A DNA stretch of 32,000 nucleotides from an uncultured Hyphomicrobiales bacterium (GCA_903902915.1 CAIUWR010000039.1:7594-39593); one strand, 5' to 3'. Positions 3,443 to 32,000 are shown, numbered from the stretch's first letter. Program-made: numbers and translations. Notes: a model not told the origin generated them from the sequence alone.

Positions 3443-3448
3443 GGGGGC

Positions 3449-5062
3449 CTAAGCCCCCCGCACCCTATCGACCAACCCCAAAACATCCGCAGGCGGCGCA
3501 TCGCCGCGCCAAGCCACGTGGCCATCGGGGCGCACCAGCACCAGCGCCTTTTCATAAAGCTGCGTCACCGCGGGCTCGTCCAATTCCACCACGCTCAAGG
3601 GCACATGGCGCGTCGCGGCGGCGTCCACCAGCGTGCGGGGGTCGGGCGCATTCTTGCCCAGCCGCAACAGCACGAAACCCTTGCCGAAAAGATCGAGCGT
3701 GGAACGGCCATCGGCGAGCCAGACATGGGGCGCGCGGGCCCCCGCGTGGGAGGACTGCACATAGTTGGCGGGATCGAAGGGCGGCGGGGTCGTGTCGTCG
3801 GGCACGCAGATGGGCGAGCCGTCGTAGCGATAGCCGAGCTGGATGCCCAGCGTGAACCACTCATGGCTCATGCGCTCGGTGTACCAATCGCCATAGGCCT
3901 TGCGCGCGGCGTCGCCATTCGGGCCGGGCGTGAAGATCTCAGCCGGGGGCTTGCGGGTGCGGGTCTCCAGCATGCGCGCCAGATTGCGCGCGGCCTCCGC
4001 CACATTGCGCGCGGCGACGGGCTTGCGCTCGATCTCGTAGCTGGCGAGCAGATTCGGCCCACCCCAACCGCGCACGCAGGCTTCCAGCTTCCACGCGATG
4101 TCCACCGATTCCTGCAAGCCGGTGTTCATGCCGAAGGCGCCGGTGGGCGATAATTGATGGGCGGAATCGCCCACCAGAAACACGCGGTTCGAGCCATAGC
4201 TGTCGGCGACCAATTCGCGCCGCGTCCAGGGCATGGTGGAGACGATCTCGATCTCGCAATCGCGCCCCACGGCGCGGCGCACGGCGGCGGTCAGCTCCTC
4301 GTCGCTCAAGGGGCGTTTGTCGCGGCCGCCCACCAGCGAGAAGCGGAAATGATCGCGCCCGTCGATGGCCACCAGCGTGGCCCAGGTGCCCTCGTCATCG
4401 ACGAAGATGTAGCGATAGGCCAGCGGCACATCCTGCACGCTTTCCAGATCGCGCGAGCGGAACACGACATTCGTGGTATAGGTGAGCACGGGATTGCCGG
4501 TCATGCCGATGCCCAGCTTCTCGCGCACGAATGAGCCCGCGCCATCGCAGCCGATGAGATATTGCGCGCGCACCTCCTGCGTCTCGCCGGAGGTCAGATC
4601 GCGGATGATCGCGGTGACGCCTTTCTCGTCCTGCGTGAAGTCGACGATTTCGGTCTGGTAGCGAAGCTCCGTCTGCGGAAACCTGCGCACGAAACGCGCC
4701 AGCGCGGGATCAAAGAAGTTTTGCGGCGCGCGCTCGCGCTTTTGCGGCGACTGCGGCGGGCAGGCCTCTTCAATGCAATTGGGGAAAGGCTCGCGGCCAA
4801 GTTCATAGCCGCCCGCCAGCGCCGTCACCCAGACATTGTCCTGCACATGGGCGCGGTTGTAGCCGCTGGTCTCGATCTCGTTCACGATGCCCCAGCGGCG
4901 GCAGAATTCCATGGTGCGCACCAGCACCATATCCATCTTCGGCTGGCGCACCGCGCCATCGGAGCGTTCGATCAAAAGGGAAGGCAATCCGCGCCACCCC
5001 AGATCGCCAGCGACCGCGAGGCCCACAGGGCCGCCGCCAACGATGATTACCGGCGTTTCCAT
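3449..5062 (-). CDS. FAD-dependent (class A flavoprotein) monooxygenase, PheA/TfdB-like
   Basis: GxGxxG Rossmann motif (VIIVGGGPVGLAVAGDL) and GDSAHQLSPTGAFGMNTGLQESVDIAWKL (GD..H / G-N motif). The ATG at 5062 has GGAAGGG 6 nt upstream. The ORF could also start at a GTG at 5077. Confidence 0.85.
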   Translation of the reverse strand: METPVIIVGGGPVGLAVAGDLGWRGLPSLLIERSDGAVRQPKMDMVLVRTMEFCRRWGIVNEIETSGYNRAHVQDNVWVTALAGGYELGREPFPNCIEEACPPQSPQKRERAPQNFFDPALARFVRRFPQTELRYQTEIVDFTQDEKGVTAIIRDLTSGETQEVRAQYLIGCDGAGSFVREKLGIGMTGNPVLTYTTNVVFRSRDLESVQDVPLAYRYIFVDDEGTWATLVAIDGRDHFRFSLVGGRDKRPLSDEELTAAVRRAVGRDCEIEIVSTMPWTRRELVADSYGSNRVFLVGDSAHQLSPTGAFGMNTGLQESVDIAWKLEACVRGWGGPNLLASYEIERKPVAARNVAEAARNLARMLETRTRKPPAEIFTPGPNGDAARKAYGDWYTERMSHEWFTLGIQLGYRYDGSPICVPDDTTPPPFDPANYVQSSHAGARAPHVWLADGRSTLDLFGKGFVLLRLGKNAPDPRTLVDAAATRHVPLSVVELDEPAVTQLYEKALVLVRPDGHVAWRGDAPPADVLGLVDRVRGA

Positions 5063-5170
5063 GCCAATCCCTTCCACTGCGCAGCCAGGTGCGAGCCGGG
5101 CCGCTTCTCGCGCGCATCTCTAGCAAGAAACGCAAGCTTGACGCCAGAGCGTCGATGAAGGGAGAGGCGT

Positions 5171-5533
5171 CTAGACTTTCGTCATTTCCGACAGGGTGGC
5201 GATGAGGCGGCGAAACCGCGCCTGATCGTCAATTTCGATCAGGCAACTCAACTCGGTCTCTCCGGCCCGCAGGAAAACCACGATGGAGGCGTCGCCCATC
5301 AACACATCCACGATCTCGACCTTGTCGAACCTGCCCCGCTCAAGGCATAGGCGTTGCAATACGTTCAGCTTGCCGCAGGTGAGGCCCGCTGCGTCCACCG
5401 GCTCGGTATAGGGCGAGGCGAAGACGACATCCTCGGCGAGCGAGCCCGCAAGGCCGACGATATCGGCGCTGCTCCAGGCGTCAAGCAGGGCGCCCAGCCG
5501 AAGCTTCACCTGCGCTTTGGTTTCATGCAACAT
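5171..5533 (-). CDS. small hypothetical protein, possibly NTF2/SnoaL-like
   Basis: The 241-aa ORF is plausibly coding only from the internal ATG at 5533 (MLHETKAQVKLRLGALLDAWSS...). The upstream part is Arg/Ala-rich and overlaps the regulatory region of the divergent gene. The fold guess is from size and pattern only. Confidence 0.4.
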   Translation of the reverse strand: MLHETKAQVKLRLGALLDAWSSADIVGLAGSLAEDVVFASPYTEPVDAAGLTCGKLNVLQRLCLERGRFDKVEIVDVLMGDASIVVFLRAGETELSCLIEIDDQARFRRLIATLSEMTKV

Positions 5534-5701
5534 GACGCGCACTCCTCGCCCACGCGGACATGCCGCCCCGCAGGCTTCCCCTATCTGACGCTGCGTCGGC
5601 GGTCGGCAACCGGAGCGGGCGATGCAAGCCGCAAAAAGGTATGGCGCCGCGTGCAGCGCTAGCGCATACTCTGCCTCAAAATGTCCGGAAAAGGTGACAT
5701 C

Positions 5702-6751
5702 ATGAGGGATCAAGGGAAACGCTCGGCTCTTTTGCGCGCCTGCATGGCCGCGCTTCCGATGCTGGCCGCATGGGGCGCGAGCGCGCAAGCGGCGGACTTC
5801 TATGCAGGCAAGCAGATCATCATGCTGGTGGGCAGCGGGGTTGGCGGCGGCTATGACAATTATGCGCGATTGTTCGCGCGCTTTCTGCCCAGACATATTC
5901 CCGGCAATCCCAATGTCATCGTGCAGAACATGCCTGCGGCGGGCAGTCTGGTGGCGATGAACACGCTCGCCAATTCAGCCCCGCGCGATGGCACGACCAT
6001 TGGCGCCGTGCAGACCCATATCGGCGTGGAGCCCTTGATGGGCGTCACAGGCCCGACCTCCAACGCCAAATATGACGCGCGCCAGATGAACTGGCTGTTC
6101 AGCGCGTCCCGGGAAGTGCCCGTGGTGGTGGCCTGGCACACGGCGCCGATCAAAAATTTCAAGGATCTGACAAAGCGGGAAATGCTTGTCGGCTCGAGCG
6201 GCGTGGCGACCTCGGACAGCGTCTATCCGCGCGTGATGAACGCATTGCTGGACACCAAATTCAAGATCATCGACGGCTACAAGGACAACCCGCAGATGCT
6301 GCTGGCCACCGAAAGCGGCGAGCTCATGGGCCGCGCTGGCTGGTTCGTGTCCAGCCTGCTGTCCACGCAGGCCACAGAACTCGAACAGGGCAAGCATCGC
6401 GTCATCGTGCAAGTGGCGCTGGCGAAACATCCGAAGTTTCCTGACGTGCCGCTGGTCACCGAATTCCTCAAAGACCCTGTCAAACTGGAACAGCTGCGCT
6501 TCGCGCTCAGCTGGCTGCCCATGGGCCGCCCCTTCGTCGCGCCCCCAGGCGTGCCGCCGGAGCGCGTGAAGATCTTGCGCGACGCCTTCCAGAACGCCTC
6601 GCGGGATCCTGAACTTCTGGCGGAAGCGGAAAAGATGAATCTCGAAATCAGCCCGCTCACCGGGGATGAGGTGCAAAGCCTGATCGCACAGCTCTACGCC
6701 ACGCCGCCTTCCGTGATCGAGAAGGTGCGCGACATCATGGTGGCCAAGTAA
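5702..6751 (+). CDS. periplasmic substrate-binding protein, Bug/TctC (tripartite tricarboxylate transporter receptor)-like
   Basis: Signal peptide (ALLRACMAALPMLAAWGASAQA) followed by GKQIIMLVGSGVGGGYDNYARLFARFLPRHIPGNPNVIVQNMPAAGS, which resembles the Bug-family N-terminal core. The start at 5702 or 5681 is uncertain. Confidence 0.65.
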   Translation: MRDQGKRSALLRACMAALPMLAAWGASAQAADFYAGKQIIMLVGSGVGGGYDNYARLFARFLPRHIPGNPNVIVQNMPAAGSLVAMNTLANSAPRDGTTIGAVQTHIGVEPLMGVTGPTSNAKYDARQMNWLFSASREVPVVVAWHTAPIKNFKDLTKREMLVGSSGVATSDSVYPRVMNALLDTKFKIIDGYKDNPQMLLATESGELMGRAGWFVSSLLSTQATELEQGKHRVIVQVALAKHPKFPDVPLVTEFLKDPVKLEQLRFALSWLPMGRPFVAPPGVPPERVKILRDAFQNASRDPELLAEAEKMNLEISPLTGDEVQSLIAQLYATPPSVIEKVRDIMVAK

Positions 6752-6859
6752 GCGAAACGCCTGCGCCAGAGAGCGATGAGATCATGCGCCATCGCCACTG
6801 AAGTGGAACCAACAAGGTTTTCATTCGTTCCCGCTGCACCGCTCATGAGGTGATGCTGC

Positions 6860-7450
6860 GTGTCTGAAGGCTCCTCCCGCCTCTCCATCACCGCCGCCGT
6901 CACGGCGCTGGCAATAGTGACGCCATGGTCTGGCGACGATGTCGCACGGGCGCAATTCTTTCCAGGTTTTGGAGCGCCCCAGCAAATCAATACGCCGCGA
7001 GGGGCCTTTCAGCTGGCGCCCGGCTGGCGCGTCGCCACAACGCCGATCCGCACAAGCCAGGGCTATCGCGTGGCGGTGCGCAGCGACGCCGGCGAACAAC
7101 GCAACATGCTGATCGGCAACAATGGGGCGCTGGCCGTCGGCCGCGCTTACGAACCGACGGCGGCGCGCCCCCGCCCGCGCGCCTCGCAATTCATCGAACG
7201 GGCGCCGCGACGAGTCGAGGCGCCCAAGCCGAAGGTCAAATTTGCAGCGATCCGGCCCGCGTCAAAGCCGACGATTGCAGCGCCGGCCCATCCAAAAGCT
7301 GCGCCGGCCAATTTCATCAGTCGCCCCTCCCCAACCGCACAGCCGACGCCGCTCCCCAAAGACACAAGTCCAAAGTTGCAACCGCCTACGCCAATTGGTC
7401 CCCAGGCGCCCGGTTACGCCCATGGCGTACCCATTAATCCACTCGATTGA
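6860..7450 (+). CDS. Pro/Ala-rich hypothetical exported protein
   Basis: GTG start with GAGGTG upstream and a hydrophobic N-terminus (LSITAAVTALAIVTPW). The C-terminal half is low-complexity and proline-rich. There is no recognisable family. Confidence 0.4.
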   Translation: MSEGSSRLSITAAVTALAIVTPWSGDDVARAQFFPGFGAPQQINTPRGAFQLAPGWRVATTPIRTSQGYRVAVRSDAGEQRNMLIGNNGALAVGRAYEPTAARPRPRASQFIERAPRRVEAPKPKVKFAAIRPASKPTIAAPAHPKAAPANFISRPSPTAQPTPLPKDTSPKLQPPTPIGPQAPGYAHGVPINPLD

Positions 7451-7540
7451 TCCTCCACATTACAGACGCCGACGCATTGCGGCGCGCCCGTCAAAACGTG
7501 AAACTAGCGCATCGTTCTGATCAGCACCCAGGAGGCCTTC

Positions 7541-8101
7541 GTGTCCGCCATGCAAAAGGAAAACTATAACGGAGCGAACGATCGCCAGATGGATGGCGCG
7601 CCCGCGCCCCAACAAACGCGCATGACATTCCGCAAAACCGAGGCGTCATGCTTCGCTGCGATTCAATCCTCACCTGAGCCGCTTTCCATCGTTTACCTCG
7701 ATGAACTGCGCCTGACCCGCGATTGCCTGACGGAGCTCATTCAGGAACACTGTCCGACCATGAATGTCACGAGCATGCCGCCCGCCGATTACGCCGCTGA
7801 ATGCGTGGCGCCGCATGCAAGCCTGATCATTTTTCATCTGCACGGCGCCTCTATTGGAGCCGCCGTCAGCATGCTGAAATTCGCCGCGCCATCCAGAAAA
7901 ACGCCGATCCTGTTTATCACTCCGCGCGAAGCGCGCAGCGAAACCGTTCATGCGGTCGAACATGACGCCGCAGGGATCGTTCATTCCGATTGCAGCATCG
8001 AACTTCTGGTGGCCGCCATCCATCTCATCATCGCAGGCGGGCGCTACTATCCCGCCGACTCGATCACCACGTCCGCGACGATGACCAAAGACATCGTCTG
8101 A
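7541..8101 (+). CDS. receiver-like (CheY-fold-like) protein without an output domain, paralogous to the N-terminus of the next gene
   Basis: GTG start with AGGAGG upstream. The alternating beta/alpha pattern (LSIVYLD..., SLIIFHLHG, PILFITPRE, GIVHSDCSIELLVAAIHLIIAGGRYYP) parallels GIITADSTIDITVAALRFALAGGAFAP in the downstream LuxR protein. Confidence 0.5.
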   Translation: MSAMQKENYNGANDRQMDGAPAPQQTRMTFRKTEASCFAAIQSSPEPLSIVYLDELRLTRDCLTELIQEHCPTMNVTSMPPADYAAECVAPHASLIIFHLHGASIGAAVSMLKFAAPSRKTPILFITPREARSETVHAVEHDAAGIVHSDCSIELLVAAIHLIIAGGRYYPADSITTSATMTKDIV

Positions 8102-15924: not shown

Positions 15925-15979
15925 TGGTGCTGCGAGACAGGATTGAACTGTCGACCTCTCCATTACCAATTAAATATAG
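15925..15979 (-). repeat. att-type direct repeat, copy 1: 3' 45 nt of tRNA-Thr(GGU) (positions 32-76 including CCA) plus 10 nt of extension
   Basis: The reverse complement is TTGGTAA-TGGAG-AGGTC-GACAG-TTCAATC-CTGTC-TCGCAGC-A-CCA. This folds as anticodon loop (GGT), 3' anticodon stem, variable loop, complete T-arm, 3' acceptor strand, discriminator and CCA. The 5' half of the tRNA is absent. It is identical to 22966-23010. Confidence 0.85.
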
Positions 15980-16060: not shown

Positions 16061-16275
16061 ATTTCCTACGAACATACTAGAACTTAACAATTAGGAAAGC
16101 ACCTCAGTCATAGACTATTTATATCGATAAAACAGATATTTGGACACAAATTCTGCTTCTCTAATTGCTCTAAATCAGCAAACAAAAAACTTTCATCGCC
16201 GAGCACGATTATGCTTTCTTTCCTACCAAGATGCTATTATCTGGATTGGCTGTCCACTCGATAGGAGACAGCAAA

Positions 16276-16719
16276 ATGGCTCACCTAAAGTCCCTCACAT
16301 TCACTGTCGCTCCCCAGCAGATTGCTCGAAATCCTAAGCTGGTTCGTCGGCAGCGGCTCATCGACCGCCTCGAAGAGCAACAGAAGCTTGTAGCCGATCC
16401 AGCTTTCACCGTGCTGGTCCGCCGATGGGTGAAAGATCCTGACGGTATCAAGCAGCCCGTGGATCGGCACAGGCGGGTGAAGCCTTGGTGGAAGGCTGAT
16501 GGTGCTGGTAATCTCGTGCTTGTGCTGAAGAGCGGCTTGAAGACCATAGAGATCGAAAAGGGAAAGCCAGGTATCGTCGTCGGGGCTCTAGGGCGGCTGG
16601 AGGCGGTTCTGACGACCTTAATAGCCGCTGCTAAGGCTGGGGAGCTTGATGGTGCTCTGGAGGCTGCCAGCGGCTCTGGCGATGGGCGTGGTGTGCCTGG
16701 GCGGGCGAAGGCGGCGTGA
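16276..16719 (+). CDS. hypothetical protein (MAHL... family), paralogous to 23225..23689
   Basis: ATG at 16276 with AGGAGA upstream. It shares MAHL, RVKPWW/RVKEWW and AGELD blocks with the island-2 protein and is followed by a strong terminator. Confidence 0.7.
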   Translation: MAHLKSLTFTVAPQQIARNPKLVRRQRLIDRLEEQQKLVADPAFTVLVRRWVKDPDGIKQPVDRHRRVKPWWKADGAGNLVLVLKSGLKTIEIEKGKPGIVVGALGRLEAVLTTLIAAAKAGELDGALEAASGSGDGRGVPGRAKAA

Positions 16720-16790: not shown

Positions 16791-17525
16791 ATGGACGCCG
16801 AGGGCAAACGTAATCCGACTTGGACCCGAGATGAGCTTATCCTCACTTTGGACTTCTATGTCCAATGCCAAGGGAACCCCCCAGCCAAAGATAGCAAACC
16901 GATAAAAGAGCTATCGGATTTATTGAATGGATTGGGTAATGCTTCCAACAAAATTTCGGACAAGTTCCGGAATATAAATGGCGTATATATGAAAATTATG
17001 AATTTCAGACGCTTCGATCCTCAATATGCGTCTAAAGGCGCAGTAGGTCTAAGCCGGGGTGGAAAGGGCGATGAGGAAGTTTGGAACGAGTTTATAAATC
17101 GACCTCTTGTTCTCAAAGCGGTGGCTTCGTCAATTCGTGCCAACCTATCGCAAGAACCCGAAACTCAAGAACAGCTTTCAGAAGAACTAGAAATAGCCGA
17201 GGCTGAAGAAGGTCATATTCTAACTCGAATTCATTTATTTCGGGAACGTAATCGTGAATTGGTCAAGAAGAAAAAAGCCGACACATTGAAGCGCACGGGC
17301 TCCTTATCTTGTGAGGTGTGTTCCTTTGACTTTGCAAAAGCATACGGCGTTAGGGGGGAAGGCTTTGCTGAGGTTCATCATACAAAACCGCTACACACCC
17401 TCCAGCCAGGCACCAAAACCAAGCTTGAGGACCTTGCAGTTCTCTGCGCTAACTGCCACCGAATGGTGCACGCTAAAAAACCTTGGCTTGAGATTATCGA
17501 GCTAAAAAATATGCTCGAAAAGTGA
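16791..17525 (+). CDS. HNH endonuclease, McrA/COG3183-like putative restriction nuclease
   Basis: The C-terminal region (CEVCSFDF...GFAEVHHTKPL...LAVLCANCHRMVH) is a CxxC...HH...CxxCH HNH zinc-finger nuclease motif arranged as in E. coli McrA. The N-terminal region (RNINGVYMKIMNFRRFDP...EEVWNEF) resembles predicted HNH restriction enzymes. Confidence 0.8.
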   Translation: MDAEGKRNPTWTRDELILTLDFYVQCQGNPPAKDSKPIKELSDLLNGLGNASNKISDKFRNINGVYMKIMNFRRFDPQYASKGAVGLSRGGKGDEEVWNEFINRPLVLKAVASSIRANLSQEPETQEQLSEELEIAEAEEGHILTRIHLFRERNRELVKKKKADTLKRTGSLSCEVCSFDFAKAYGVRGEGFAEVHHTKPLHTLQPGTKTKLEDLAVLCANCHRMVHAKKPWLEIIELKNMLEK

Positions 17526-18012
17526 AATAATTTTCAAAAATGTCTGAATTAAGCATTACCGCCGCCTAAATAGAATTGAAGGGGCGTTAATTGGCGTCCA
17601 TTGAAACTTCCGATAAAGCTGGGGGCAGCAGTAATCAGCCCCACCCACGTGGTTGCGAGACTACAGGTGACTATCTCTCGGCGGAAGGAGAACCAAAAAA
17701 ATACGCACTGAGCCCGCAGGGGAGTAAGAGCTTGAAGTACAGCTCCGCTACCATCGCCTACACTAGGTTACTCAGAGAGCGAATTTTGGTATTTCGAAAA
17801 GCCGTCGAAGCCTTAGAGCAATGACGGCACGATGGGGGCTACGTTGACAATTGCGACCCCCGAGCACACAGACGTCGCCTGATTGGCTCTGTTGTTGCTG
17901 GCGTTGATGGACAGGACAGAAATGGGAGAGCGCACGACCGCCCCATACCTCTAAATGAGGTGTTCCTAATCAGGGTGTATGACGGGGGCGCTAGACGCAT
18001 AACCAGAATACG

Positions 18013-18039
18013 ACACTTCGGCTGTAGAGGCCGAAGTGT
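18013..18039 (+). other. perfect 10-bp stem-loop in a long non-coding stretch
   Basis: ACACTTCGGC-tgtagag-GCCGAAGTGT. A third partial copy (ACACTTC, 18050-18056) could pair alternatively with the 3' arm. Confidence 0.5.
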
Positions 18040-18217
18040 GTTCTGAAAACACTTCCGCAGCTAATAAGAGAACAATAATTGATTAGCTAATTAGTAGCTA
18101 AAGAAAAATACAGGACCAACGAACGAGCGAACGAAGAGAGCGAGTGAGTGTTCCGAAGGAACGAATTGATAGCTCTAGAAAATAATCTGAAAACCAATAA
18201 GAAAGGGAACGAACAAA

Positions 18218-18415
18218 ATGAAATTAATTTCCACTGAAGAAAAAATCGAACTTCTCAAGAACCTACTAGCTGATCCTGATGATTGGATTAGCCGAGAAAT
18301 TCTCTCTCTGGTCTATCAGTTCGAAGAAACCGATGAAGACCAGCAGCAGCGAAGCGTAGCGAGCTTGCCGAAGGCAATCACTCGAAACAAGATTACCTCT
18401 ATCAATACCCAATAA
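18218..18415 (+). CDS. small acidic hypothetical protein
   Basis: 65-aa ORF with AAGGGA upstream. It is the first gene of a same-strand string of tightly spaced ORFs. Confidence 0.4.
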   Translation: MKLISTEEKIELLKNLLADPDDWISREILSLVYQFEETDEDQQQRSVASLPKAITRNKITSINTQ

Positions 18416-18475
18416 ATAATTCGTCCGTAAAAACGGAATTCCCACCAAATACCGATTTAAAATAGGATTAATTAA

Positions 18476-18661
18476 ATGAGATTAGCAGACAGTTACAGAG
18501 GAAAAGATGGCTACACGCTATCTTCTCTCATCGCCAGATCCAAGATTGTTGAGATTGTCGAGGTCTCATCCACCAGCGAGATTTCTAAGAAGCTCGATGA
18601 AATCAAAAAAGTGATATCAAAAAACTCTGGCAGTTTCACTATCATAGCATTCAAGCAATAA
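18476..18661 (+). CDS. small hypothetical protein
   Basis: 61-aa ORF with AGGA upstream. It is 9 nt from the next ORF. Confidence 0.4.
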   Translation: MRLADSYRGKDGYTLSSLIARSKIVEIVEVSSTSEISKKLDEIKKVISKNSGSFTIIAFKQ

Positions 18662-18670
18662 GGATTTTCA

Positions 18671-18883
18671 ATGAACATCATCCATAATCAGAACGTAGCA
18701 TTTCGTTGTCCGAACACACTTAAGGAAAAGCTCCAAACCTACGCTGATGAGAACGATCTTCGTGTATCGGCGGTCATCAGAAACGCCTGTGTGGACTACC
18801 TTAGAAAACAGATGCCAACAGCTTTTGCTCCACTGTCACCCGCCAGTTTTACTGATCCTCGTTTGGCGGAGTTGGCTCGATGA
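18671..18883 (+). CDS. ribbon-helix-helix (CopG/Arc-like) DNA-binding protein
   Basis: VAFRCPNTLKEKLQTYADENDLRVSAVIRNACVDYLRKQ has the beta-strand / helix / helix pattern of RHH proteins. AAGGA lies upstream. Confidence 0.55.
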   Translation: MNIIHNQNVAFRCPNTLKEKLQTYADENDLRVSAVIRNACVDYLRKQMPTAFAPLSPASFTDPRLAELAR

Positions 18884-22086: not shown

Positions 22087-22356
22087 ATGAGCCTTGGAAA
22101 ACAAGCCAAAACCCTCACCAAGCCCCAGATCGACGCCGTCTTGGGCTATCTCGCCAAGACCCGCTACCCAGTCCGTGATCGGGTCATTTTCCTACTTTCG
22201 GTGAAGGCTGGCCTCAGAGCCAAAGAGATTGCTTCGCTTACGTGGTCTATGGTGACAGACGCCGAAGGAGCGCTGGCAGACATCATCAGCCTTACCGATA
22301 TTGCCTCCAAGGGGAGAGGAGGGCGTGTGACCGTATTCGATGCCATTTTCCCGTAG
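22087..22356 (+). pseudogene. truncated small tyrosine recombinase (N-terminal 80 aa of the catalytic domain), paralogous to 25795..26361
   Basis: LTKPQIDAVLGYL...RDRVIFLLSVKAGLRAKEIASLTW...SKGRGGRV aligns with LTDKQLKQVLSHC...RDRAIVLFSFLAGLRAKEIAALTL...SKGRKARRV of the intact 188-aa gene. Similarity stops at about 22329 and the HxxR and Tyr motifs are missing. Confidence 0.7.
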
Positions 22357-22817
22357 CGAGAATTCTGGACTATCCAGACGTTCAAGTCAGCCAGCGTCGC
22401 CCCTGTGACCTCTTTGATCCTTATCGTTCCAAAGAATTTCTCAGTGTGTTTAAGAAACTGGATTCTGGTGAGCATCGTCGACTTGATGTTACCCATCGCC
22501 TCGATGCCCGCCACATATTCGCCGATAGCGACCGTGACCCGCTTTGAATGAAGGTCCTGCCCGTTGGCGACCTTGAGAAACGTCTTGTTGAAGAGGTCAT
22601 TGGCGAAGGCGAACGCCTGATGCTCGTCGGTGGTTTTCGTCGAGCAAGAAACGTAGCCTTTGCTATTGGGAACTTTGACCCGACAGAACCAAGTCGGTTT
22701 CACATAATCTGCCCTTTTGAAAAGATAGATTGCCCCGTCTTTGAAGGTTCGGCTCTCTAACTCAGTCTTCGCTTTACGCTCTGTTTTTGTTTTTGATACT
22801 TTGGTCGTTTCGTCCAT
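22323..22817 (-). pseudogene. integrase N-terminal fragment (arm-binding plus SAM-like core-binding region), catalytic domain missing
   Basis: GAIYLFKRADYVKPTWFCRVKVPNSKGYVSCSTKTTDEHQAFAFA...IGEYVAGIE...FLKHTEKFFG...IKEVTGATLADL...ASNTVTR has the layout of tRNA-targeting integrase N-termini. The rest of the ORF (22164-22322) is merely antisense to the plus-strand fragment. Confidence 0.65.
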
Positions 22818-23224: not shown

Positions 23225-23689
23225 CTATTTCTTGCCCCCTGCCCGCTTATCAACTTTCGTTTTCACAAACTGCCTGTCTTTGGACGCCGCAGCCAACTCC
23301 GTGTCCAACTCACCTGCGTCTACTGCCTTCAAAACAGTGGTGATTGTGTTGGGCAAGTCAGCAAGTGAGCCAACCTCAATAGCAGCCATCCCGTTGGCTA
23401 TGGGCAGCAGCTTGGCGCCGTAGCGCACTGTGAGCAGCACTGAGCCCGCCACATTCTTACACCACCACTCCTTAACCCGCACAGGGCGTTGGACACGGTG
23501 AGGCTCTCCCTGCCCATCCACAGTATCCACCCAACGCATACGCCTATACGGACTGCCGCCCAACTGTGCCTCCGCCAAGCAGAGCTGCTCCTGTAGCTTT
23601 ACAATCAGCTTGTGCCTGCGGCGCTCCTCCGCAGTTGTAGGATTGAAGTTGGGCTTTGCTACGACTTTCAGTGTTTCCAAATGTGCCAC
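23225..23689 (-). CDS. hypothetical protein (MAHL... family), paralogous to 16276..16719
   Basis: 154 aa with shared blocks MAHLETLK, RPVRVKEWW, AIEVG and AGELD. Confidence 0.7.
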   Translation of the reverse strand: MAHLETLKVVAKPNFNPTTAEERRRHKLIVKLQEQLCLAEAQLGGSPYRRMRWVDTVDGQGEPHRVQRPVRVKEWWCKNVAGSVLLTVRYGAKLLPIANGMAAIEVGSLADLPNTITTVLKAVDAGELDTELAAASKDRQFVKTKVDKRAGGKK

Positions 23690-25794: not shown

Positions 25795-26361
25795 ATGAAG
25801 CAAGCAAGAACGCTCACAGACAAACAGCTCAAGCAAGTACTATCCCACTGCTCCACCCGCCACCATGCAGCAAGAGATCGCGCTATAGTGCTGTTCAGTT
25901 TCTTAGCTGGCCTGCGTGCCAAGGAGATAGCAGCGCTCACTTTAGCGAATGTGGTAGCGGACGATGGCAAAGTCCGTGATGAGTTCACTTTGTCACCGCA
26001 ACAGTCGAAGGGGCGTAAAGCCAGACGGGTCTTCATCAATGACCGACTCCAGAAAGAAATCACTCTCTATCTCAAGCAAGTGAAGCTACGAGCAATATGC
26101 CCAGCTCTTTTCCAATCCCAAAAAGGAAGTCACTTCTCCGCCAACACCATGTGCCAGTTGCTGCTACGCATTTATGATGAGGCAGGCTTTTCGGACGCAA
26201 CTAGCCATACTGGCAGGAGGTCAATGATTACGGCATTGGCAGCAAAGGGCATCGGGGTGCGTGTATTGCAGACATTAGCAGGACACTCATCCATCAGCAC
26301 AACGCAACGTTACATAGACGTGAACGACCAGCAGTTGCGGGCGGCAGTGGAACTAGCTTGA
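25795..26361 (+). CDS. small tyrosine recombinase (catalytic domain only, 188 aa)
   Basis: All catalytic signatures are present: AGLRAKEI (Arg I), SKGRKARRV (Lys beta-hairpin), SHTGRRS (HxxR) and GHSSISTTQRYI (His/Tyr). There is no N-terminal core-binding domain. Confidence 0.85.
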   Translation: MKQARTLTDKQLKQVLSHCSTRHHAARDRAIVLFSFLAGLRAKEIAALTLANVVADDGKVRDEFTLSPQQSKGRKARRVFINDRLQKEITLYLKQVKLRAICPALFQSQKGSHFSANTMCQLLLRIYDEAGFSDATSHTGRRSMITALAAKGIGVRVLQTLAGHSSISTTQRYIDVNDQQLRAAVELA

Positions 26362-26511: not shown

Positions 26512-27564
26512 ATGAAAGCGGCTATTCCTGATTTTCGACACCAATCCAGTCGATTCTCTGGATTCAAAATGTTTTATGAGTTTCATTACACGACCAATGA
26601 TTGCTCACCTGACATTGCAGTTGAGACGTGGCTGGCTAATAAGCTTGATTTTGATTTTGAACAAAGATGCGTACTGGCACTGTTTCAGGGCGCTGTGTAT
26701 TCAGGACCAATAGAGACAATCTTTGCGACTCAGTTTCCTAAGCTGACAGGGTCAATGGACAATCTCATATCCTTCTACAAAGATAATAAGGCTAGGATGG
26801 TCTTTTCGTCTGATTGCAAATACCGAAAGGTTTTTTTTGAACAGTTCCTCACCTCAGTGGCCAAATCCGTGTCGCACTACGGTAGCCTTGGCCAGCTGGT
26901 CGCTTCCTGCTTTGATTCAGACGATAGAACCGCGAACTATCGCAAGCTTCAGCGTCTGTGTGTTGACGAATGGTACCAATGGGGTCGTATGGGTCACTGG
27001 TGTTTTGCTGAGGCACTGTATAGCTTTGTCAAAGCACCTATCACTCCACCAACGATGGAGTTCATCGACGGTAAAAGTCATAGAGCGGGTTGGGCATTTT
27101 GCCTTAACCGTGATGATTTAACCCACGATAAAATATCACGAGCTGATTGTGATTATCTAGAACAAGAAGCTGCGAGATTCATTGCTAATCTCAAACACCC
27201 AAATGCAAACTACTTTACGTTAGAGACAGCCTGCTGCAACTACAAACGTCAACATAAAGGCAGTCGTTATGGAGGCTGCTACATTGACGAGCAGTACGAT
27301 GAAATAATATGGGCGCAGGAGAAATGGGCTGAATATAGCTCCTTGTGGGACACTTATATGCTGGGCAGGCAGGCGGTCCTCCCTGCTGCCCTGCTATATG
27401 AAAACAACACCCACCAATCTCAACCACGCTCCGAAGCAGCTTACCAAAAAAGTTGGACGAAATCCCTGAGCCAATATGGTAGGATTCCAAGAGTTGAGGC
27501 TTGGTTTGCCAACGAACCCCAAGTTTGGACTGACATCAAGAATCTGCCATTTGCTATCCACTAA
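26512..27564 (+). CDS. Trp/Tyr/Cys-rich helical protein; candidate aGPT-pyrophosphorylase / amino-acid:DNA transferase-like enzyme (function hypothetical)
   Basis: 350-aa ORF with coding-like composition. Its stop codon overlaps the convergent 1184-aa gene (CTAA/TTAG at 27561-27564). The functional guess comes only from gene neighbourhood (kinase plus dioxygenase) and the all-helical appearance. Confidence 0.7.
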   Translation: MKAAIPDFRHQSSRFSGFKMFYEFHYTTNDCSPDIAVETWLANKLDFDFEQRCVLALFQGAVYSGPIETIFATQFPKLTGSMDNLISFYKDNKARMVFSSDCKYRKVFFEQFLTSVAKSVSHYGSLGQLVASCFDSDDRTANYRKLQRLCVDEWYQWGRMGHWCFAEALYSFVKAPITPPTMEFIDGKSHRAGWAFCLNRDDLTHDKISRADCDYLEQEAARFIANLKHPNANYFTLETACCNYKRQHKGSRYGGCYIDEQYDEIIWAQEKWAEYSSLWDTYMLGRQAVLPAALLYENNTHQSQPRSEAAYQKSWTKSLSQYGRIPRVEAWFANEPQVWTDIKNLPFAIH

Positions 27565-30500
27565 GTCATACCAAAATAGCTCTTCATCTCAACCAATATC
27601 AGAGCCTGATGTTCGTCGGTGTTGTTCTCCATCGTCTTGACGCGACTAAAAAACGTTGGGGAGCCACATATGTTTCGGATTTTAGTGCGCTTGGCTTTTA
27701 TGAACTGTTCTGGCTGATTATCTTTACGTTTCTTATGACGAGCCTTGAGAACGGCGTCTGCGGCAACCACCTCAATGATTTTGAGTGAAACGCCCATCTC
27801 ATCAAGTGCTTCAAGAAAGCTGAAGTTAAACAAACGGTCTCCCTCAAAAATAACGTTTGATTTTATCTGCGTGAGAAAACTGAGTGCTACAGGCTGTACC
27901 GCCATGTCTAAACGGTCTGTGCCAGGAAAGTCTTCCCCATCCACATACTCGCCAAGAATGTAACAATCCAAATCCTTGTTATAAAGCGCCTTCAAGCCCT
28001 TGCCCGGCTTCAAACTTTCCCACTTGCCTGTTTCCTTTAGAAACGCTTTCATAAGCGTAGATTTACCAGTTGCGGGCAGTCCATTAATCGCCAGCACCTT
28101 CTTCTTCGTTTTAACACGAACGCTACTCTTCGGCTGCGCTACGTAATATGGTGGTATATCCTCAGCCTTTATCCCCTTCATTGGTTTCCCAGTTGAGATT
28201 GAGACGTATGGCAATGCATCGGTAATATAATCAAACCTCACAGTGCGCCCATCTTTCCTGAAATGAGCTAATCCAAGTTCATATGCTGATTCCTCATTTG
28301 GCTGGTATCTAGCATCAAGCTTAGGTCGGTTGATTACGCCGACGCAACTACTGACTGGGTGAAAACTTCGCACAGACAGAGATTTGTCTAACGCCTCAGC
28401 TTGATTGTCGGTGTCACCCTTTATGGATATCCCCCAAAGATACGAACTATGCTCCCGGCAAGCATCAAAACCACGCCTGATAACTCTTTGCTCAAAACTA
28501 TCTACGGATAGAATCGCATCTTTAGAAGAACCAGTCAGCCCATATATCCCATCAATGTCATCACGCAGATATACGATAGGGGTGTTTGGAGGGAAATACT
28601 CAGCGGGATGCATAGAGCTTATCTGGCTCCCAAAACCTACGTTCTTGCTATTTTTTTTGACTGTGATCGTTGCTGTTTTACGCAGGCTTGCATAACCATC
28701 CTTGCCCAGCCACTCTGTTATCTGTTCATTATTCCAACCCTGTTTCTGTAGGTCTACTATCTTCGTCGCCAACCGAACTTGATATGGCTTGTCCATTTCC
28801 ACACCATAGCTCTCTAACAAGCTCTCACCCGGTACGAATAGCGTTACACGGCGGGGGTCTATGTTCTGCTGTTTCAGATAGCGAAATATCTTTATAGGAC
28901 GGGGGTGTGCACCATCTGGCGATATCATCACGGCAATCTTGTAGCTGTTCCACTTGAAGTTTGGTCTCTCAGATTTGGGTGGATAGGCTTTCTCAGTGTT
29001 CTCTTTATATGCGAGCGTTGTTTTGGTGTAGCATACAACCGACAGACGACGCCCCTCCCCATTGAGTTGTTGGACGCCGTGGACCTTGCGGGAGTTAGCA
29101 ACAAAGACATCGCCATCACCAACTCTGAATGCGCAGCGATATTGGGGTATGACAAAATAACCACCCTCATATTTGCCTTCATTGAATACAGCGATGGTCG
29201 TCAAGCCACTGTTATGGTCACCGCTATCAATATGATAGTTCATGGCGGGCATATCATCGCCATAACGGTTGACGGCTAATGTGGTGAACACGCTGCCACC
29301 AAGCCGATGTTCCCGCAGGATCCGTGAGCTTAGGAACTTGGCCTGTTTCTGATAATCCGCCTTAGCCACCCTGTAATAGACAGTGTCACAACGCTTGGCC
29401 AATGCGAAGAACCCAGCTTTCACGTCCTCACTTGCGACCCCAGCTAAAGCGAACTGAGGCACTTTCGTCGTCTTATCGGGTATCCAGCCATAAGTGGATG
29501 ATGGGATGGGTTCACTACGTGGACGATCCCAATGCCCTTTTTTGCCATCACGCTCTTCGACCCACTTCTCATAAGTGCGCCCTTCATTAGACAGGCGATA
29601 TTTTAGGCCGCGCTTCTCAAAGTTGGCGATGGTCTTTTGGCTTATGGGGTGCGGCGATTCAGTTATCCTAGCACCACTTGTATCTTGGATGGCGCGGATG
29701 GATGTCACTGCTTCGGTACGGGCAGCGTCAGTGAAGATTTTTCTCTTCACGGCGCCAATGACAGGACGACGCCCAATCGTTAGGTCATATGGGCCTTCAA
29801 CAATAAAGTCCTTGTTGATGATGTCAGCATCAAAGAGATAATCGTAGTCCTTGTGCGTCGGCGTCTTGCCTATCAAATCGGCAGCAGCACGGTCCCCCAA
29901 GTCCTGCTCTGATATATAGAGCCTGACGTCGCCATCTGAGGATAACAGAGTGGCCGCGCGGCTGATGCTGAGTTCGCGTGGTGTGCTTGCTGTTGGCTTC
30001 TTCAGTTTGCCGGCTAGCACGATTAGGACAGCGTCTGCCACCATCTCAGCAATCTGGGTGGGTATCGCCTGTGCTAACAGCCGCGCCTTATCATTCTCTT
30101 TCGCTTTGATAGTGAATGCGTCGGGCATACCAATGAGGGCACTCATCTCTGAGGTGGTGAACATCCTGTCTTCTGCGGGATGTAGACAGCCATTGTCTCC
30201 AAGTTGCTTGGCTTTATAAAAGTCCAAGTTTGCACAGGGAGTGTCCCAAGCTGCCCGCATCACTTGGTGGCCTTTACTCTTTGGATAACCGCAGTCAGTG
30301 ACTGCCCTCAGCCCAAGACTTGCAAGTGTCGTCACTTTGGCTGGCTCTTTCCGCAAGAGCTTCCGTGCTGCCCACAAAGCCTTGCTGCGATGTGTCTGCT
30401 TCGTCCAGTAATCAGCATCAGAACGTCTGGTATCAACCTTACTCAGCACTGCCCTTACCGTGCTGTGGTCACTTGGCATTGGTAGTGGAAAGGCAAACTC

Positions 30501-31115
30501 CAACGCTTCGTCGGTGGTGACTTTGGCTTTTGCTGCTTGTTCCCTATGGACTACAAACACCACGCCATAGGATTTGGACACGGCGGAGCCATACTGGGCC
30601 GCGTCAACCACCCGACAGAATACAAAATAGTCGCGCTCTAGGTGTCCATCGCCCATTTTTTTATAGCGTAAAAAATCTACAGACCTATTGAATCGCGTCA
30701 GGTTCTCATTCGCCAGCAACTCCGGCGGCACATAACCCACAGCGACTTTAGGAGAGAGGCTGCGGACGATGTTGAAGAAGTCAGACAGCTGGGCGGGTGT
30801 ATTGGCGGTCTTGTCGGCTGGGCTGAGCTGGGCTGAGAAATCCAACAGGTCTAGCACGGCCCCTGCTGGTAGCCCCACCTTGGCCACAAGCTCAGCTCTG
30901 CCCTTCTCTTTGCGGTTGTTGAACCAACGAGCATCGGTGTTGTCGTGGGTGGTAGCAGGGAAGTTCGTGGCGAAGACCGACCTCTCCAAATCCTCTGTTT
31001 CAGTTCCATACAAAATCTGAAACCCTTTTGACCTGTAGGCAAATGCGGTTGTGCCGATTCCTGCTGAAAAGCAGGCAGCTGTGTAGGTGTTTTTCGCCAT
31101 CGCTGTTGCCTTCAT
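27561..31115 (-). CDS. 1184-aa multidomain DNA-modification protein: degenerate C5-MTase-like + TET/JBP-like 2OG-Fe(II) dioxygenase + DxD region + P-loop kinase
   Basis: It is an uninterrupted 3.5-kb ORF. The motifs are listed in the four domain features below. The start is at 31115 or at Met6 (31100). Confidence 0.9.
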   Translation of the reverse strand: MKATAMAKNTYTAACFSAGIGTTAFAYRSKGFQILYGTETEDLERSVFATNFPATTHDNTDARWFNNRKEKGRAELVAKVGLPAGAVLDLLDFSAQLSPADKTANTPAQLSDFFNIVRSLSPKVAVGYVPPELLANENLTRFNRSVDFLRYKKMGDGHLERDYFVFCRVVDAAQYGSAVSKSYGVVFVVHREQAAKAKVTTDEALEFAFPLPMPSDHSTVRAVLSKVDTRRSDADYWTKQTHRSKALWAARKLLRKEPAKVTTLASLGLRAVTDCGYPKSKGHQVMRAAWDTPCANLDFYKAKQLGDNGCLHPAEDRMFTTSEMSALIGMPDAFTIKAKENDKARLLAQAIPTQIAEMVADAVLIVLAGKLKKPTASTPRELSISRAATLLSSDGDVRLYISEQDLGDRAAADLIGKTPTHKDYDYLFDADIINKDFIVEGPYDLTIGRRPVIGAVKRKIFTDAARTEAVTSIRAIQDTSGARITESPHPISQKTIANFEKRGLKYRLSNEGRTYEKWVEERDGKKGHWDRPRSEPIPSSTYGWIPDKTTKVPQFALAGVASEDVKAGFFALAKRCDTVYYRVAKADYQKQAKFLSSRILREHRLGGSVFTTLAVNRYGDDMPAMNYHIDSGDHNSGLTTIAVFNEGKYEGGYFVIPQYRCAFRVGDGDVFVANSRKVHGVQQLNGEGRRLSVVCYTKTTLAYKENTEKAYPPKSERPNFKWNSYKIAVMISPDGAHPRPIKIFRYLKQQNIDPRRVTLFVPGESLLESYGVEMDKPYQVRLATKIVDLQKQGWNNEQITEWLGKDGYASLRKTATITVKKNSKNVGFGSQISSMHPAEYFPPNTPIVYLRDDIDGIYGLTGSSKDAILSVDSFEQRVIRRGFDACREHSSYLWGISIKGDTDNQAEALDKSLSVRSFHPVSSCVGVINRPKLDARYQPNEESAYELGLAHFRKDGRTVRFDYITDALPYVSISTGKPMKGIKAEDIPPYYVAQPKSSVRVKTKKKVLAINGLPATGKSTLMKAFLKETGKWESLKPGKGLKALYNKDLDCYILGEYVDGEDFPGTDRLDMAVQPVALSFLTQIKSNVIFEGDRLFNFSFLEALDEMGVSLKIIEVVAADAVLKARHKKRKDNQPEQFIKAKRTKIRNICGSPTFFSRVKTMENNTDEHQALILVEMKSYFGMT
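27564..28103 (-). other. domain: P-loop kinase-like (aa 1005-1184)
   Basis: Walker A: VLAINGLPATGKSTLM (nt 28056-28082). A hydrophobic strand plus acidic residues (CYILGEYVDGED), then GTDRLD and IFEGDRLF. The size is typical of small nucleotide or nucleic-acid kinases. Confidence 0.65.
28161..28943 (-). other. domain: unassigned region with a GT-A-like beta1 strand and DxD motif (aa 725-985)
   Basis: YKIAVMISPDG...VTLFVPGES...PIVYLRDDIDGIYG (D852-D853-x-D855). The pattern is reminiscent of nucleotide-sugar (GT-A) transferases. Confidence 0.35.
29001..29438 (-). other. domain: 2OG-Fe(II) dioxygenase double-stranded beta-helix core, TET/JBP-like (aa 560-705)
   Basis: NYHIDSGD (H628-x-D630), GGYFVIP, GDGDVFVANSRKVHGV (H679) and GEGRRLSVVCY (R689/R690 about 10 residues after the distal His). 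H628 maps to nt 29232-29234. Confidence 0.7.
29961..31100 (-). other. domain: C5 DNA methyltransferase-like fold with degenerate catalytic motifs (aa 6-385)
   Basis: Motif I-like ACFSAGIGTTAFA and TETEDLERSVFATNFP. The motif IV position reads DLLDFSAQLS (no Pro-Cys). The motif VI position reads PKVAVGYVPPELL (no ENV). The motif VIII position reads AAQYGSAVSKSYGVVFVV (no QxRxR). The motif IX/X-like region (MFTTSEMSALIGMPDAF and AQAIPTQIAEMVADAV) is retained. Confidence 0.6.
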
Positions 31116-31172: not shown

Positions 31173-32000
31173 ATGGAAAGAAACTCACCACGTCCACGAG
31201 AGTTGGCGCAAAGGGTCATAAAGTCCGTCAAGGACAGTGTCGCGGCAAGCTTGGACACTTGCTTCGCTTTTGCAGAAGCTTGGACACTCTATTTAGAAGC
31301 TGGATGGACCGATAAGGACCTCCTCAGCTTTCTCAACCAACTCCATGCAGCACGTATTGGGCCAGACCCCGTAACACTAGGCAGGGACAAAGAGGACCGG
31401 CTCATTATCGGCACATCGTCAGCATCGTTCTACATGATGAAACGCATTGGTGAGAGCGCACTGCTGAAAGACAAAGAAATCAGGACAGCCTGCCTCATCA
31501 ACAGCCGCAGTAGCCTATACGACCTCATACAGCTCTATGAAGAGGCATGTGAGAGAGGCAGCGGGTCTGCTGTAAAAAAAGAAGAGCGGGCTAGAGAAAA
31601 AGTGCTTTCGCTGCTGACCGCGCACGGTGAAGGATTGACACGTAAGTTGATTGCTGAGGCACGTAAACAGCTTAGCAAACAGCGCCAATCCCATAAACCC
31701 AAAGACCTCCTACATAAAGCGCAGCCAAATGAAGGTGGCTTTTCGCTAGCAGAGCTGCTGGAGAGCGGCGCAAGTTTTCAAGAAATACTCCTGACGCCAT
31801 CTGCATTGGTTCTGGATGCGATTGAAGAGATGTCGATTGCTGATTTGGAGGAGCGGCTTGGATTGTGCAACCTGTCGTCTGGAAATTGTATTGAGCGTTG
31901 TTCAAGAATTCTGGCATCCCCACTTTATATATGCCTTTGTGTCAGCGCCCCACTTTTCATCGATTTCGACGAGGATGGCGCTAACGAGCCGCATGAGAGA
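31173..32000 (+). CDS. hypothetical protein, 5' part only (ORF runs off the right end of the window)
   Basis: ATG at 31173, then 276 codons without a stop to position 32000 (my own translation: MERNSPRPRELAQRVIKSVKDS...). It is absent from the supplied ORF track, presumably because it has no stop. It is divergent from the 1184-aa gene across only 57 bp. Confidence 0.55.
   Translation, partial: MERNSPRPRELAQRVIKSVKDSVAASLDTCFAFAEAWTLYLEAGWTDKDLLSFLNQLHAARIGPDPVTLGRDKEDRLIIGTSSASFYMMKRIGESALLKDKEIRTACLINSRSSLYDLIQLYEEACERGSGSAVKKEERAREKVLSLLTAHGEGLTRKLIAEARKQLSKQRQSHKPKDLLHKAQPNEGGFSLAELLESGASFQEILLTPSALVLDAIEEMSIADLEERLGLCNLSSGNCIERCSRILASPLYICLCVSAPLFIDFDEDGANEPHER

Follow-up and report, generated by a model that had tools for sequence, protein, structure and literature searches.

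Within a 32,000-nucleotide (nt) stretch of DNA from an uncultured Hyphomicrobiales bacterium (GCA_903902915.1, CAIUWR010000039.1:7594-39593; the whole stretch is referred to as the window), one gene encodes a fusion protein of 1,184 amino acids (aa). In this protein, a degenerate C5-DNA-methyltransferase (MTase) fold, a TET/JBP-type dioxygenase, an eroded domain related to the TET-associated glycosyltransferases (TAGT) and a P-loop kinase follow one another, and a separate gene for a predicted amino-acid:DNA transferase (ADDT) adjoins it. We interpret the locus as a compact set of genes that would hypermodify pyrimidines in DNA after replication, thymine being the likeliest target, and assign this reading a probability of about 0.6. 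We infer the chemical steps, thymine as the substrate and the roles of the degenerate modules and of a further partner gene from module identities, motifs, conservation and co-occurrence. In the proposed pathway, the 5-methylpyrimidine dioxygenase (5mYOX) module would use Fe(II), 2-oxoglutarate (2OG) and O2 to hydroxylate the C5-methyl group of thymine in DNA, giving 5-hydroxymethyluracil (5hmU). The C-terminal kinase would then phosphorylate the 5hmU hydroxyl with ATP to 5-phosphomethyl-deoxyuridine (5-phosphomethyl-dU), creating a leaving group, and the ADDT would displace the phosphate with an amino acid or an amine. The dead MTase module would be the adaptor that targets the protein to DNA, and the TAGT-like domain would have been kept as a scaffold. 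No pyridoxal phosphate (PLP), radical S-adenosylmethionine (SAM) or flavin adenine dinucleotide (FAD) tailoring genes are present at the locus, and a simple aminoacyl-thymine would therefore be expected as the product.

The fusion gene begins with ATG (Table 1). Its relatives begin at the residues MAK, five residues further in, and M6 may be the true start. A first-pass annotation of the same stretch had read from it this open reading frame (ORF), a C5-MTase-like fold at aa 1-390, a 2OG-Fe(II) dioxygenase core at aa 430-705, a DDxD-bearing region at aa 725-985 that might be a glycosyltransferase (GT) and a Walker-A kinase at aa 1005-1184; profile and structure searches bore out each of these assignments, and scans with PHROGs and NCBIfam were consistent with the Pfam domain calls. 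A word-indexed search returned only six full-length relatives (70 to 98% identity), all of them from metagenomes or metagenome-assembled genomes (MAGs), and the intact ORF was present in at least seven independent assemblies and MAGs. A genome scan located the element in Beijerinckiaceae MAGs, and the E. coli genomes searched gave no match. An exhaustive HMMER search exposed a wider family at 30 to 41% identity. By Pfam, five of its members (P0008, P0009, P0011, P0012 and P0013) combine the MTase-like, Tet_JBP and TAGT domains and are kinase-less, while P0015 was called as Tet_JBP plus TAGT, its N-terminal MTase-like part being more degenerate. P0010 carries all four domains, and P0007 (1,449 aa) carries the four together with a fused ADDT. 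A metagenome scan added 15 more loci, most of them of the kinase-less type. On IMG/VR viral contigs, every match started at residue 397 of the fusion or beyond, and no MTase-like module was seen among these matches. The dN/dS ratio against the relative L003 could not be computed, as dS was saturated, and per-module amino-acid identity was taken instead. Purifying selection acts on all four modules, with 68 to 87% amino-acid identity persisting at saturated dS.

Table 1. Features of the window, in order of position (counted from its first letter)
Feature	Coordinates	Strand	Basis
46-nt 3' fragment of tRNA-Thr(GGT), att scar, left end of low-GC island	15925..15970	-	Alignment, GC break
DUF6641 gene	16231..16719	+	phrog_31551
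HNH endonuclease	16791..17525	+	PADLOC
ORF-poor 1.2-kb region	17526..18746		
217-aa ORF	22164..22817	-	
DUF6641 gene, paralogue	23225..23689	-	phrog_31551
Tyrosine recombinase, 188 aa, catalytic domain only	25795..26361	+	Phage_integrase, E 7e-29
Predicted ADDT, aGPT-Pplase type, 350 aa, convergent neighbor	26512..27564	+	PF18724, phrog_3271
Whole fusion gene: MTase-like, 5mYOX, TAGT-like and kinase modules in order	27561..31115	-	ORF list, relatives
Module 4 (aa 1005-1184): predicted P-loop DNA-hydroxymethylpyrimidine kinase, PF18751/5-HMUDK-like	27564..28103	-	AAA_33, Ploopntkinase3, motifs
Module 3 (aa 712-1000): TAGT-like, eroded donor-site motifs, ~55-aa insertion	28116..28982	-	hhalign
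Insertion within Module 3 (aa ~775-830)	28626..28793	-	
Module 2 (aa 398-705): TET/JBP-type 5mYOX, apparently intact	29001..29924	-	PF12851
Module 1 (aa 10-380): C5-DNA-MTase fold, catalytically degenerate (pseudo-MTase)	29976..31088	-	PF00145, AlphaFold2/Foldseek
Partner gene, divergent, 57 bp upstream of fusion, cut by window end	31173..32000	+	Conserved adjacency

The dioxygenase, Module 2, is the most conserved part of the fusion (87% amino-acid identity to L003). It matched Tet_JBP (PF12851) over aa 571-698 (E 1.2e-11; 44.6 bits versus a gathering threshold of 34.9) and phrog_24024 (E 1.9e-18), which places it in a nucleic-acid family and not among the prolyl hydroxylases or PhyH oxygenases. 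The iron triad (H628-x-D630 and H679) and the 2OG-binding arginine R690 showed no variation among 14 members of the family or at 9 additional loci. There are also stand-alone homologues, about 310 aa long, whose extent matches aa 398-705 precisely (P0016, 48% identity). Module 2 thus has the appearance of an intact 5mYOX of the TET/JBP type. A TET of the same clade, P0047, adjoins an HMUDK_hel protein and a GT; among the genes looked up on its 6-kb contig, which did not include a truncated upstream gene of 294 aa, no C5-MTase was called.

The kinase, Module 4, carries the Walker A sequence GLPATGKST at aa 1012-1020. Over aa 1006-1150 it matched AAA_33 (E 6e-5) and Ploopntkinase3 (PF18751; E 1e-4), both under the gathering thresholds, and the orthologous kinase modules of P0010 (60.7 bits, E 1.7e-16) and P0007 (31.3 bits) passed the Pfam gathering threshold. 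The module is 42% identical to gp114 of Caulobacter phage Cr30. A family hidden Markov model (HMM) of Module 4 and 43 stand-alone homologues matched mycobacteriophage Heath gp4, the PF18751 archetype (E 8e-20), and in its comparison with M6 gp54, a validated kinase of 5-hydroxymethyl-deoxyuridine (5hmdU) in DNA, the Walker A, G(D/E)Y..G(T/L)DR(L/I) and hFEG motifs were aligned. On these grounds we classify Module 4 as a putative P-loop DNA kinase of the 5-HMUDK type.

The first-pass annotation had also mentioned aGPT-Pplase/AADT enzymes as part of the known phage pathways, and such a gene directly adjoins the fusion, the stop codons of the two genes overlapping by 4 nt. Its product matched the ADDT family PF18724 (E 1.3e-18; 68 bits versus a gathering threshold of 26.2) and phrog_3271 (E 2.7e-30), and tblastn gave about 27% identity to the ViI/Cba120-type aGPT-Pplase clade 2. 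No BLASTP similarity to M6 gp51 was found, and the relationship is drawn from the Pfam and ViI-type matches. The ADDT gene also occurs in the related loci L001, L002 and L006, and in P0007 (locus L065) it is fused behind the kinase (60% identity). We consider it accessory to the fusion. Among the island ORFs scanned, there was neither an active C5-MTase nor a thymidylate-synthase-like (dUMP/dCMP) hydroxymethylase; the latter absence had been noted before and was upheld.

In Module 1, the MTase fold itself is well supported. PF00145 (DNA_methylase) matched aa 18-362 (E 4.9e-12; 46.3 bits versus a gathering threshold of 22), and the AlphaFold2 (AF2) model was confident for aa 10-370 (pLDDT about 85-90). 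Foldseek ranked 8yf3 first, the structure of a DNA cytosine C5-carboxymethyltransferase (target TM 0.85, E 3.4e-21); M.HhaI, M.HaeIII and DNMT1 came next (E range over the four, 1e-12 to 3e-21). To examine the catalytic motifs, the module was aligned with its closest active relatives (P0069, P0079, P0130 and the MTase of Methylophilales phage Melnitz) and with M.HhaI, whose sequence served only as an alignment guide. Motif IV reads FSAQ or a variant of it instead of GSPPC/FPCQ, the cysteine being absent in all of the roughly 20 fusion-family members. Across the family, ENV of motif VI is replaced by GYV, AYV, AFG, AVG and similar sequences, and QxRxR of motif VIII by VSKSY, VSKLY or VAKPY; motif X has changed from GN(S/M)V to AQAIP in Module 1. 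Eight further metagenomic members have likewise lost the cysteine and ENV, and most of the eight have a substituted motif VIII as well, although L077 reads RTRR there. In contrast, the active relatives P0069, P0079, P0130 and the Melnitz MTase retain the Cys, ENV and RxR motifs. A phmmer alignment with 8yf3 had offered ANENL as the equivalent of ENV; this was rejected, as the multiple alignment with the close active relatives pairs PKVAVGYV with PKVVIAENV. We therefore predict that the module is dead and unable to methylate, because the nucleophile and the acid/base residues are gone. Its sequence is still held at 70% amino-acid identity to L003 at saturated dS, and it would serve as an adaptor that binds DNA, reads a sequence or flips a base.

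Module 3 of the window protein gave no direct Pfam match. Comparison of aa 712-1001 with the C-termini of relatives that match PF20691 by hhalign (99.9%, E 1.5e-32, 218 columns) identified it as homologous to TAGT, and the DDxD site, R851-D852-D853-I-D855, lies within this domain. The roughly 14 kinase-less members all have, without variation, TPVxFxDDDI, DKEDxERS and a C-terminal GGxQ..R segment. In the window protein, RDD stands for DDD and EESAYELG for DKEDxERS, and the GGxQ..R segment is gone with a truncated C-terminus. At the DDD position, the four kinase-bearing lineages read RDD (window family), AGD (P0007), KGD (P0010) and TDD (L076). Motif erosion thus coincides with the kinase, as each of the four lineages that bear one shows it and the roughly 14 kinase-less members do not; the loss of the GT motifs with the gain of the kinase was probably a single evolutionary event, so that the correlation counts once. 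TP, RE..Y, R930 and H951..D955.R957 remain invariant. We infer that the module would have lost sugar-donor binding and kept a role as a structural or acceptor-binding scaffold. An ancestral MTase-like-TET-GT enzyme would have made a base-J-like glycosyl-5hmU, and the kinase and ADDT route would later have replaced glycosylation. With both the MTase-like and the TAGT-like modules probably noncatalytic, the fusion would be a two-enzyme polypeptide with two adaptor domains.

Two side observations concern this domain. An insertion of about 55 aa in the TAGT-like domain, ..LQKQGWNNEQITEWLGKDGYASLRK.., resembles a helix-turn-helix motif; it is absent in the relatives P0002 and P0003, and AF2 confidence is very low there. 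On the P0008-type kinase-less islands (L067 to L069), an Acyl_transf_3 gene adjoins the cassette, which suggests that their product may be an acylated glycosyl-5hmU.

Several observations weigh against our interpretation, and we consider them here together with the alternatives that they would favor. Thymine is favored over 5-methylcytosine (5mC) as the likely substrate of the TET module, since the fused MTase is dead, no other one was found among the island ORFs scanned, and the kinases and AADTs have known substrates; the neighborhood of P0047 points the same way. By the cytosine route, the dioxygenase would instead oxidize 5mC to 5-hydroxymethylcytosine (5hmC), the 5mC having been written by some C5-MTase of the host or from elsewhere, or by a residual, unconventional activity left in the fused module, and the 5hmC would then be phosphorylated and aminoacylated. 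The nearest cultured-phage relative of the TET core is Melnitz gp6 (39% identity over the core), and it adjoins an active HhaI-like MTase; therefore, a 5mC ancestry is possible for this TET clade. The Melnitz operon as a whole, the closest in a cultured phage, runs from an active MTase through a TET and a 427-aa protein to a kinase, and the relatives include one active MTase-TET fusion (P0069). Burke et al. (2021, PMC8256090) proposed that a kinase acts on 5hmC made by TET, and cytosines are plentiful in a host with 65% GC. We nevertheless consider the cytosine route unlikely, given that Cys and ENV are lost in about 20 family members, that no further C5-MTase was found among the island ORFs scanned, that the characterized AADT and 5-HMUDK enzymes act on 5hmdU (PMC8989533) and that kinase/AADT-linked 5mYOXs have been reported as T-dioxygenases (PMC13229309). 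For the proposed phosphorylation step, the scores of the window kinase are low, both for Ploopntkinase3 (22.4 bits versus a gathering threshold of 27) and for M6 gp54 (a weak match of 17.5 bits). Furthermore, AF2 confidence is low in the double-stranded β-helix core of the TET module and in the TAGT-like module, and the four-module relatives L003 and L005 have no ADDT on their contigs; therefore, in these relatives the kinase product may be the end point or may be used otherwise.

The degenerate modules allow other readings as well. GT-A enzymes with a variant DxD can remain active, and the TAGT-like module might accordingly still transfer sugar through a variant metal site to give a base-J-like glycosyl-5hmU, with the kinase phosphorylating the sugar or serving a parallel branch. 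Against this, the first Asp of DDD, DKED and GGxQ..R have gone from every lineage with a kinase (P0007 reads AGD and P0010 KGD at the DDD position) and are kept by all members without one. Despite the clear TAGT homology of Module 3, the invariance of D852 in the window family, the retention of TP, RE..Y, R930, H951, D955 and R957 and the intact TAGT that Cr30 keeps beside its kinase and ADDT, we regard an active GT as distinctly unlikely. The MTase-like module, rather than being a passive adaptor, could bind SAM and carry out or regulate something else, for instance a transfer to a position other than C5 or an allosteric control. Its motif I GxG (FSAGIG) and the acidic residue of motif II (E39) are kept and are compatible with SAM binding, a family-specific D-x-R-W-F-x-N-R-K motif is conserved, and the closest solved structure, 8yf3, takes the noncanonical cofactor carboxy-SAM; since motif X, which contributes to the SAM pocket, is replaced along with every catalytic residue, we find this very unlikely. 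The catalytic degeneration of two of the four modules might finally be taken to mean that the gene has no function today, being either a remnant in decay or a product of misassembly. This is scarcely credible for an ORF that is intact in at least seven independent assemblies and MAGs, with invariant catalytic TET and kinase residues and strong constraint on all modules at saturated dS, and conservation effectively refutes it.

Divergently oriented from the fusion gene lies a partner gene that encodes 348 aa in the relative L006 (8897-9943) and 331 to 352 aa across loci. All 13 related loci whose flanks are long enough have it next to the fusion gene, at identities down to 24-33%. Neither Pfam, PADLOC nor Foldseek gave it a family or fold, and its AF2 model is confident solely in the helical N-terminal 170 aa, the C-terminal half being of low confidence. 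Two candidate identities were rejected. An MT-A70 methylase was suggested by a lone weak Pfam match (E 0.17) in one of six members, and a ParB-like activator found no ParB Pfam match, the best Foldseek match in the PDB having an E value of 0.14. In L003, a 73%-identical relative that lacks the ADDT, a gene for a 310-aa DnaJ-domain protein (2578-3510, minus strand) follows the partner gene. A more far-reaching version of our model, which we hold to be tentative and on balance doubtful, would have the dead C5-MTase and the 348-aa partner form a new device for DNA targeting or duplex opening that replaces the ParB activator of phage T-dioxygenases. One polypeptide would then processively oxidize and phosphorylate specific thymines in double-stranded DNA (dsDNA) while the pseudo-GT holds the flipped 5hmU, and the resulting sequence-specific aminoacyl-thymine mark on the chromosome or the island would constitute a heritable cellular system like Dnd or Dpd and not a phage counter-defense.

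The GC content of the window is about 65% up to approximately 16 kb and about 48% beyond. A fragment of tRNA-Thr(GGT), aligned to the 3' half of the tRNA-Thr of L007 with two compensatory T-stem changes, sits precisely at this GC break. In L007 itself the island abuts tRNA-Thr(GGT), and in L006 (97% identity) the far island end abuts tRNA-Ala(GGC), followed by a 463-aa integrase. The cassette thus lies on a tRNA-integrated island of roughly 22 kb that extends past the window end, on the evidence of an att fragment in the window and of relatives whose islands abut tRNA genes. The island proposed in the first-pass annotation is supported in this way, although ARAGORN and Rfam scans found no tRNA gene in the window. 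Near-identical islands sit at tRNA-Ala(GGC), and it seems that either one integrase has more than one target or the integrases differ. The island cargo comprises an HNH endonuclease, two DUF6641 genes, a Rep-like gene and a short recombinase; a prophage was considered and rejected, as there were no structural-gene PHROG matches. A homologue of the 188-aa recombinase flanks the cassette in L001, L003, L005, L006, L067, L074 and L079-81, so that islands as distant as L067, L074 and L079 have kept it next to the cassette. The HNH endonuclease matched the PADLOC models for HNH (E 1.5e-9) and Type IV methyl-directed restriction (E 3.8e-6), and may be the nuclease counterpart of the modification. 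With regard to known defense systems, PADLOC returned solely the MTase_II-type matches of Module 1 and the HNH/Type IV-like matches of this gene, plus weak matches to Cas7d/Csc2 (E 6e-5) for a 217-aa ORF that has no Pfam match. The DUF6641 gene, of which the island has two paralogues, is present also on the distant P0008-type island L067. A region of 1.2 kb with 42 to 49% GC has no ORF of at least 90 aa on either strand.

Taken together, the one-polypeptide, four-module machine of the first-pass annotation stands in a changed form: the four modules are there, two of them are probably noncatalytic, and the last step would be carried out from the separate ADDT gene. The dead-MTase-TET-TAGT architecture may already have been drawn by Iyer et al. 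in 2013. The post-replicative, hydroxymethylase-free route that had been proposed is supported by the modules, but as a concept it was already published (Lee et al. 2021; O'Toole et al. 2026). The novelty is architectural and ecological and not conceptual, and lies in the fusion, the two retired modules, the new partner and the bacterial island. What is known so far of the series of TET/JBP enzyme, kinase and amino-acid transferase comes from lytic phages in which the enzymes are separate, and some of these need a ParB-like activator on dsDNA. The locus would represent a naturally fused, minimal version of thymine hypermodification on a bacterial chromosomal island, accompanied by a new obligate partner protein without a fold match, and it offers a clear instance of enzyme modules, a dead MTase and an eroded GT, that appear to have been retired to adaptor roles. 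As a construct of one to three genes, it should lend itself to reconstituting the reactions and to biotechnological uses, site-selective DNA functionalization among them. If it is true that the host chromosome carries the mark, complex thymine hypermodification would extend from viruses to cellular genomes.

The closest chemical parallel is found in the phage 5-HMUDK and AADT/aGPT-Pplase pathways (M6, PaMx11, ViI, PhiW-14 and SP10), in which a kinase activates 5hmdU in DNA and an AADT substitutes the phosphate, as we propose here (Lee et al. 2018; Lee et al. 2021, PMC8989533). In phages of the M6/ViI type, 5hmdU arises pre-replicatively from a dUMP hydroxymethylase, whereas in the window protein the kinase shares one polypeptide with a TET/JBP dioxygenase; those pathways belong to lytic phages, whereas the window locus is a bacterial chromosomal island and lacks the PLP, radical-SAM and FAD tailoring genes. 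The 2021 study described contigs with Tet_JBP in place of the dUMP hydroxymethylase beside 5-HMUDK and AADT. Phage T-dioxygenases linked to kinases, AADTs and GTs have since been demonstrated (O'Toole et al. 2026, PMC13229309), with the 5mYOX clade C1 being ParB dependent and clade C2 ParB independent. These phage 5mYOX pathways, for which Heath genes 1 to 4 (ParB-like, Tet_JBP, ADDT and Ploopntkinase3) are an example, share with our locus the link of Tet_JBP to a P-loop kinase and an AADT or GTs, with PF18751 in common. They consist of separate genes, whereas here one polypeptide includes a fused dead C5-MTase-like module and has an unrelated 348-aa partner, and, unlike in the ParB-dependent 5mYOX subclass, no ParB-like gene was detectable at the window locus. 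Caulobacter phage Cr30, whose host is an alphaproteobacterium, encodes four activities in common with the fusion plus ADDT locus in one cluster (kinase gp114, TAGT gp122, ADDT gp123 and Tet_JBP gp129), but its genes are unfused, its TAGT is intact with DDD present, and the MTase-like module and the partner gene were not identified there. We found no characterization of the Cr30 DNA modification in the literature; the cluster predicts a thymine hypermodification that may combine a sugar with an amino acid. Several of these phage genes are misannotated in public records. Two of them are actually Tet_JBP proteins (Heath gp2, "queuine tRNA-ribosyltransferase"; Cr30 gp129, "SNF2 DNA repair protein"), and Heath gp4, Cr30 gp114 and M6 gp54 are DNA kinases labeled "terminase small subunit" (phrog_800).

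Among the phage 5hmC pathways with C5-MT, TET and, in part, GT genes (Burke et al. 2021, PMC8256090), the association of a C5-MTase-fold protein with a TET is likewise seen, for example in Melnitz, where an active HhaI-like MTase, Tet_JBP, the 427-aa protein and the P-loop kinase form an operon (4010-8090; L004). BLASTP related the 427-aa protein to neither the TAGT-like module nor ADDT, and it may represent a new transferase with phosphorylated 5hmC as its substrate. Burke et al. reported that the clade III-VI C5-MTs beside clade C/D phage TETs have disrupted motifs VIII-X and little or no activity, with the Cys kept. They are a partial precedent for the dead MTase module, yet they are separate genes, whereas the window module is fused and has additionally lost Cys and ENV. 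A last comparison is with trypanosomatid base J synthesis by JBP1/2 and JGT and with the TET-TAGT fusions (PF20691), since the P0008-type sisters pair a T-dioxygenase-like TET with an intact TAGT. These sisters would be predicted to make glycosyl-5hmU, and the window protein probably derives from their architecture; in contrast to those systems, its GT motifs are eroded, and a kinase and ADDT route has been added. Where JBP1 reaches DNA through its J-binding domain, the candidate targeting domain of the window protein is the dead MTase fold.

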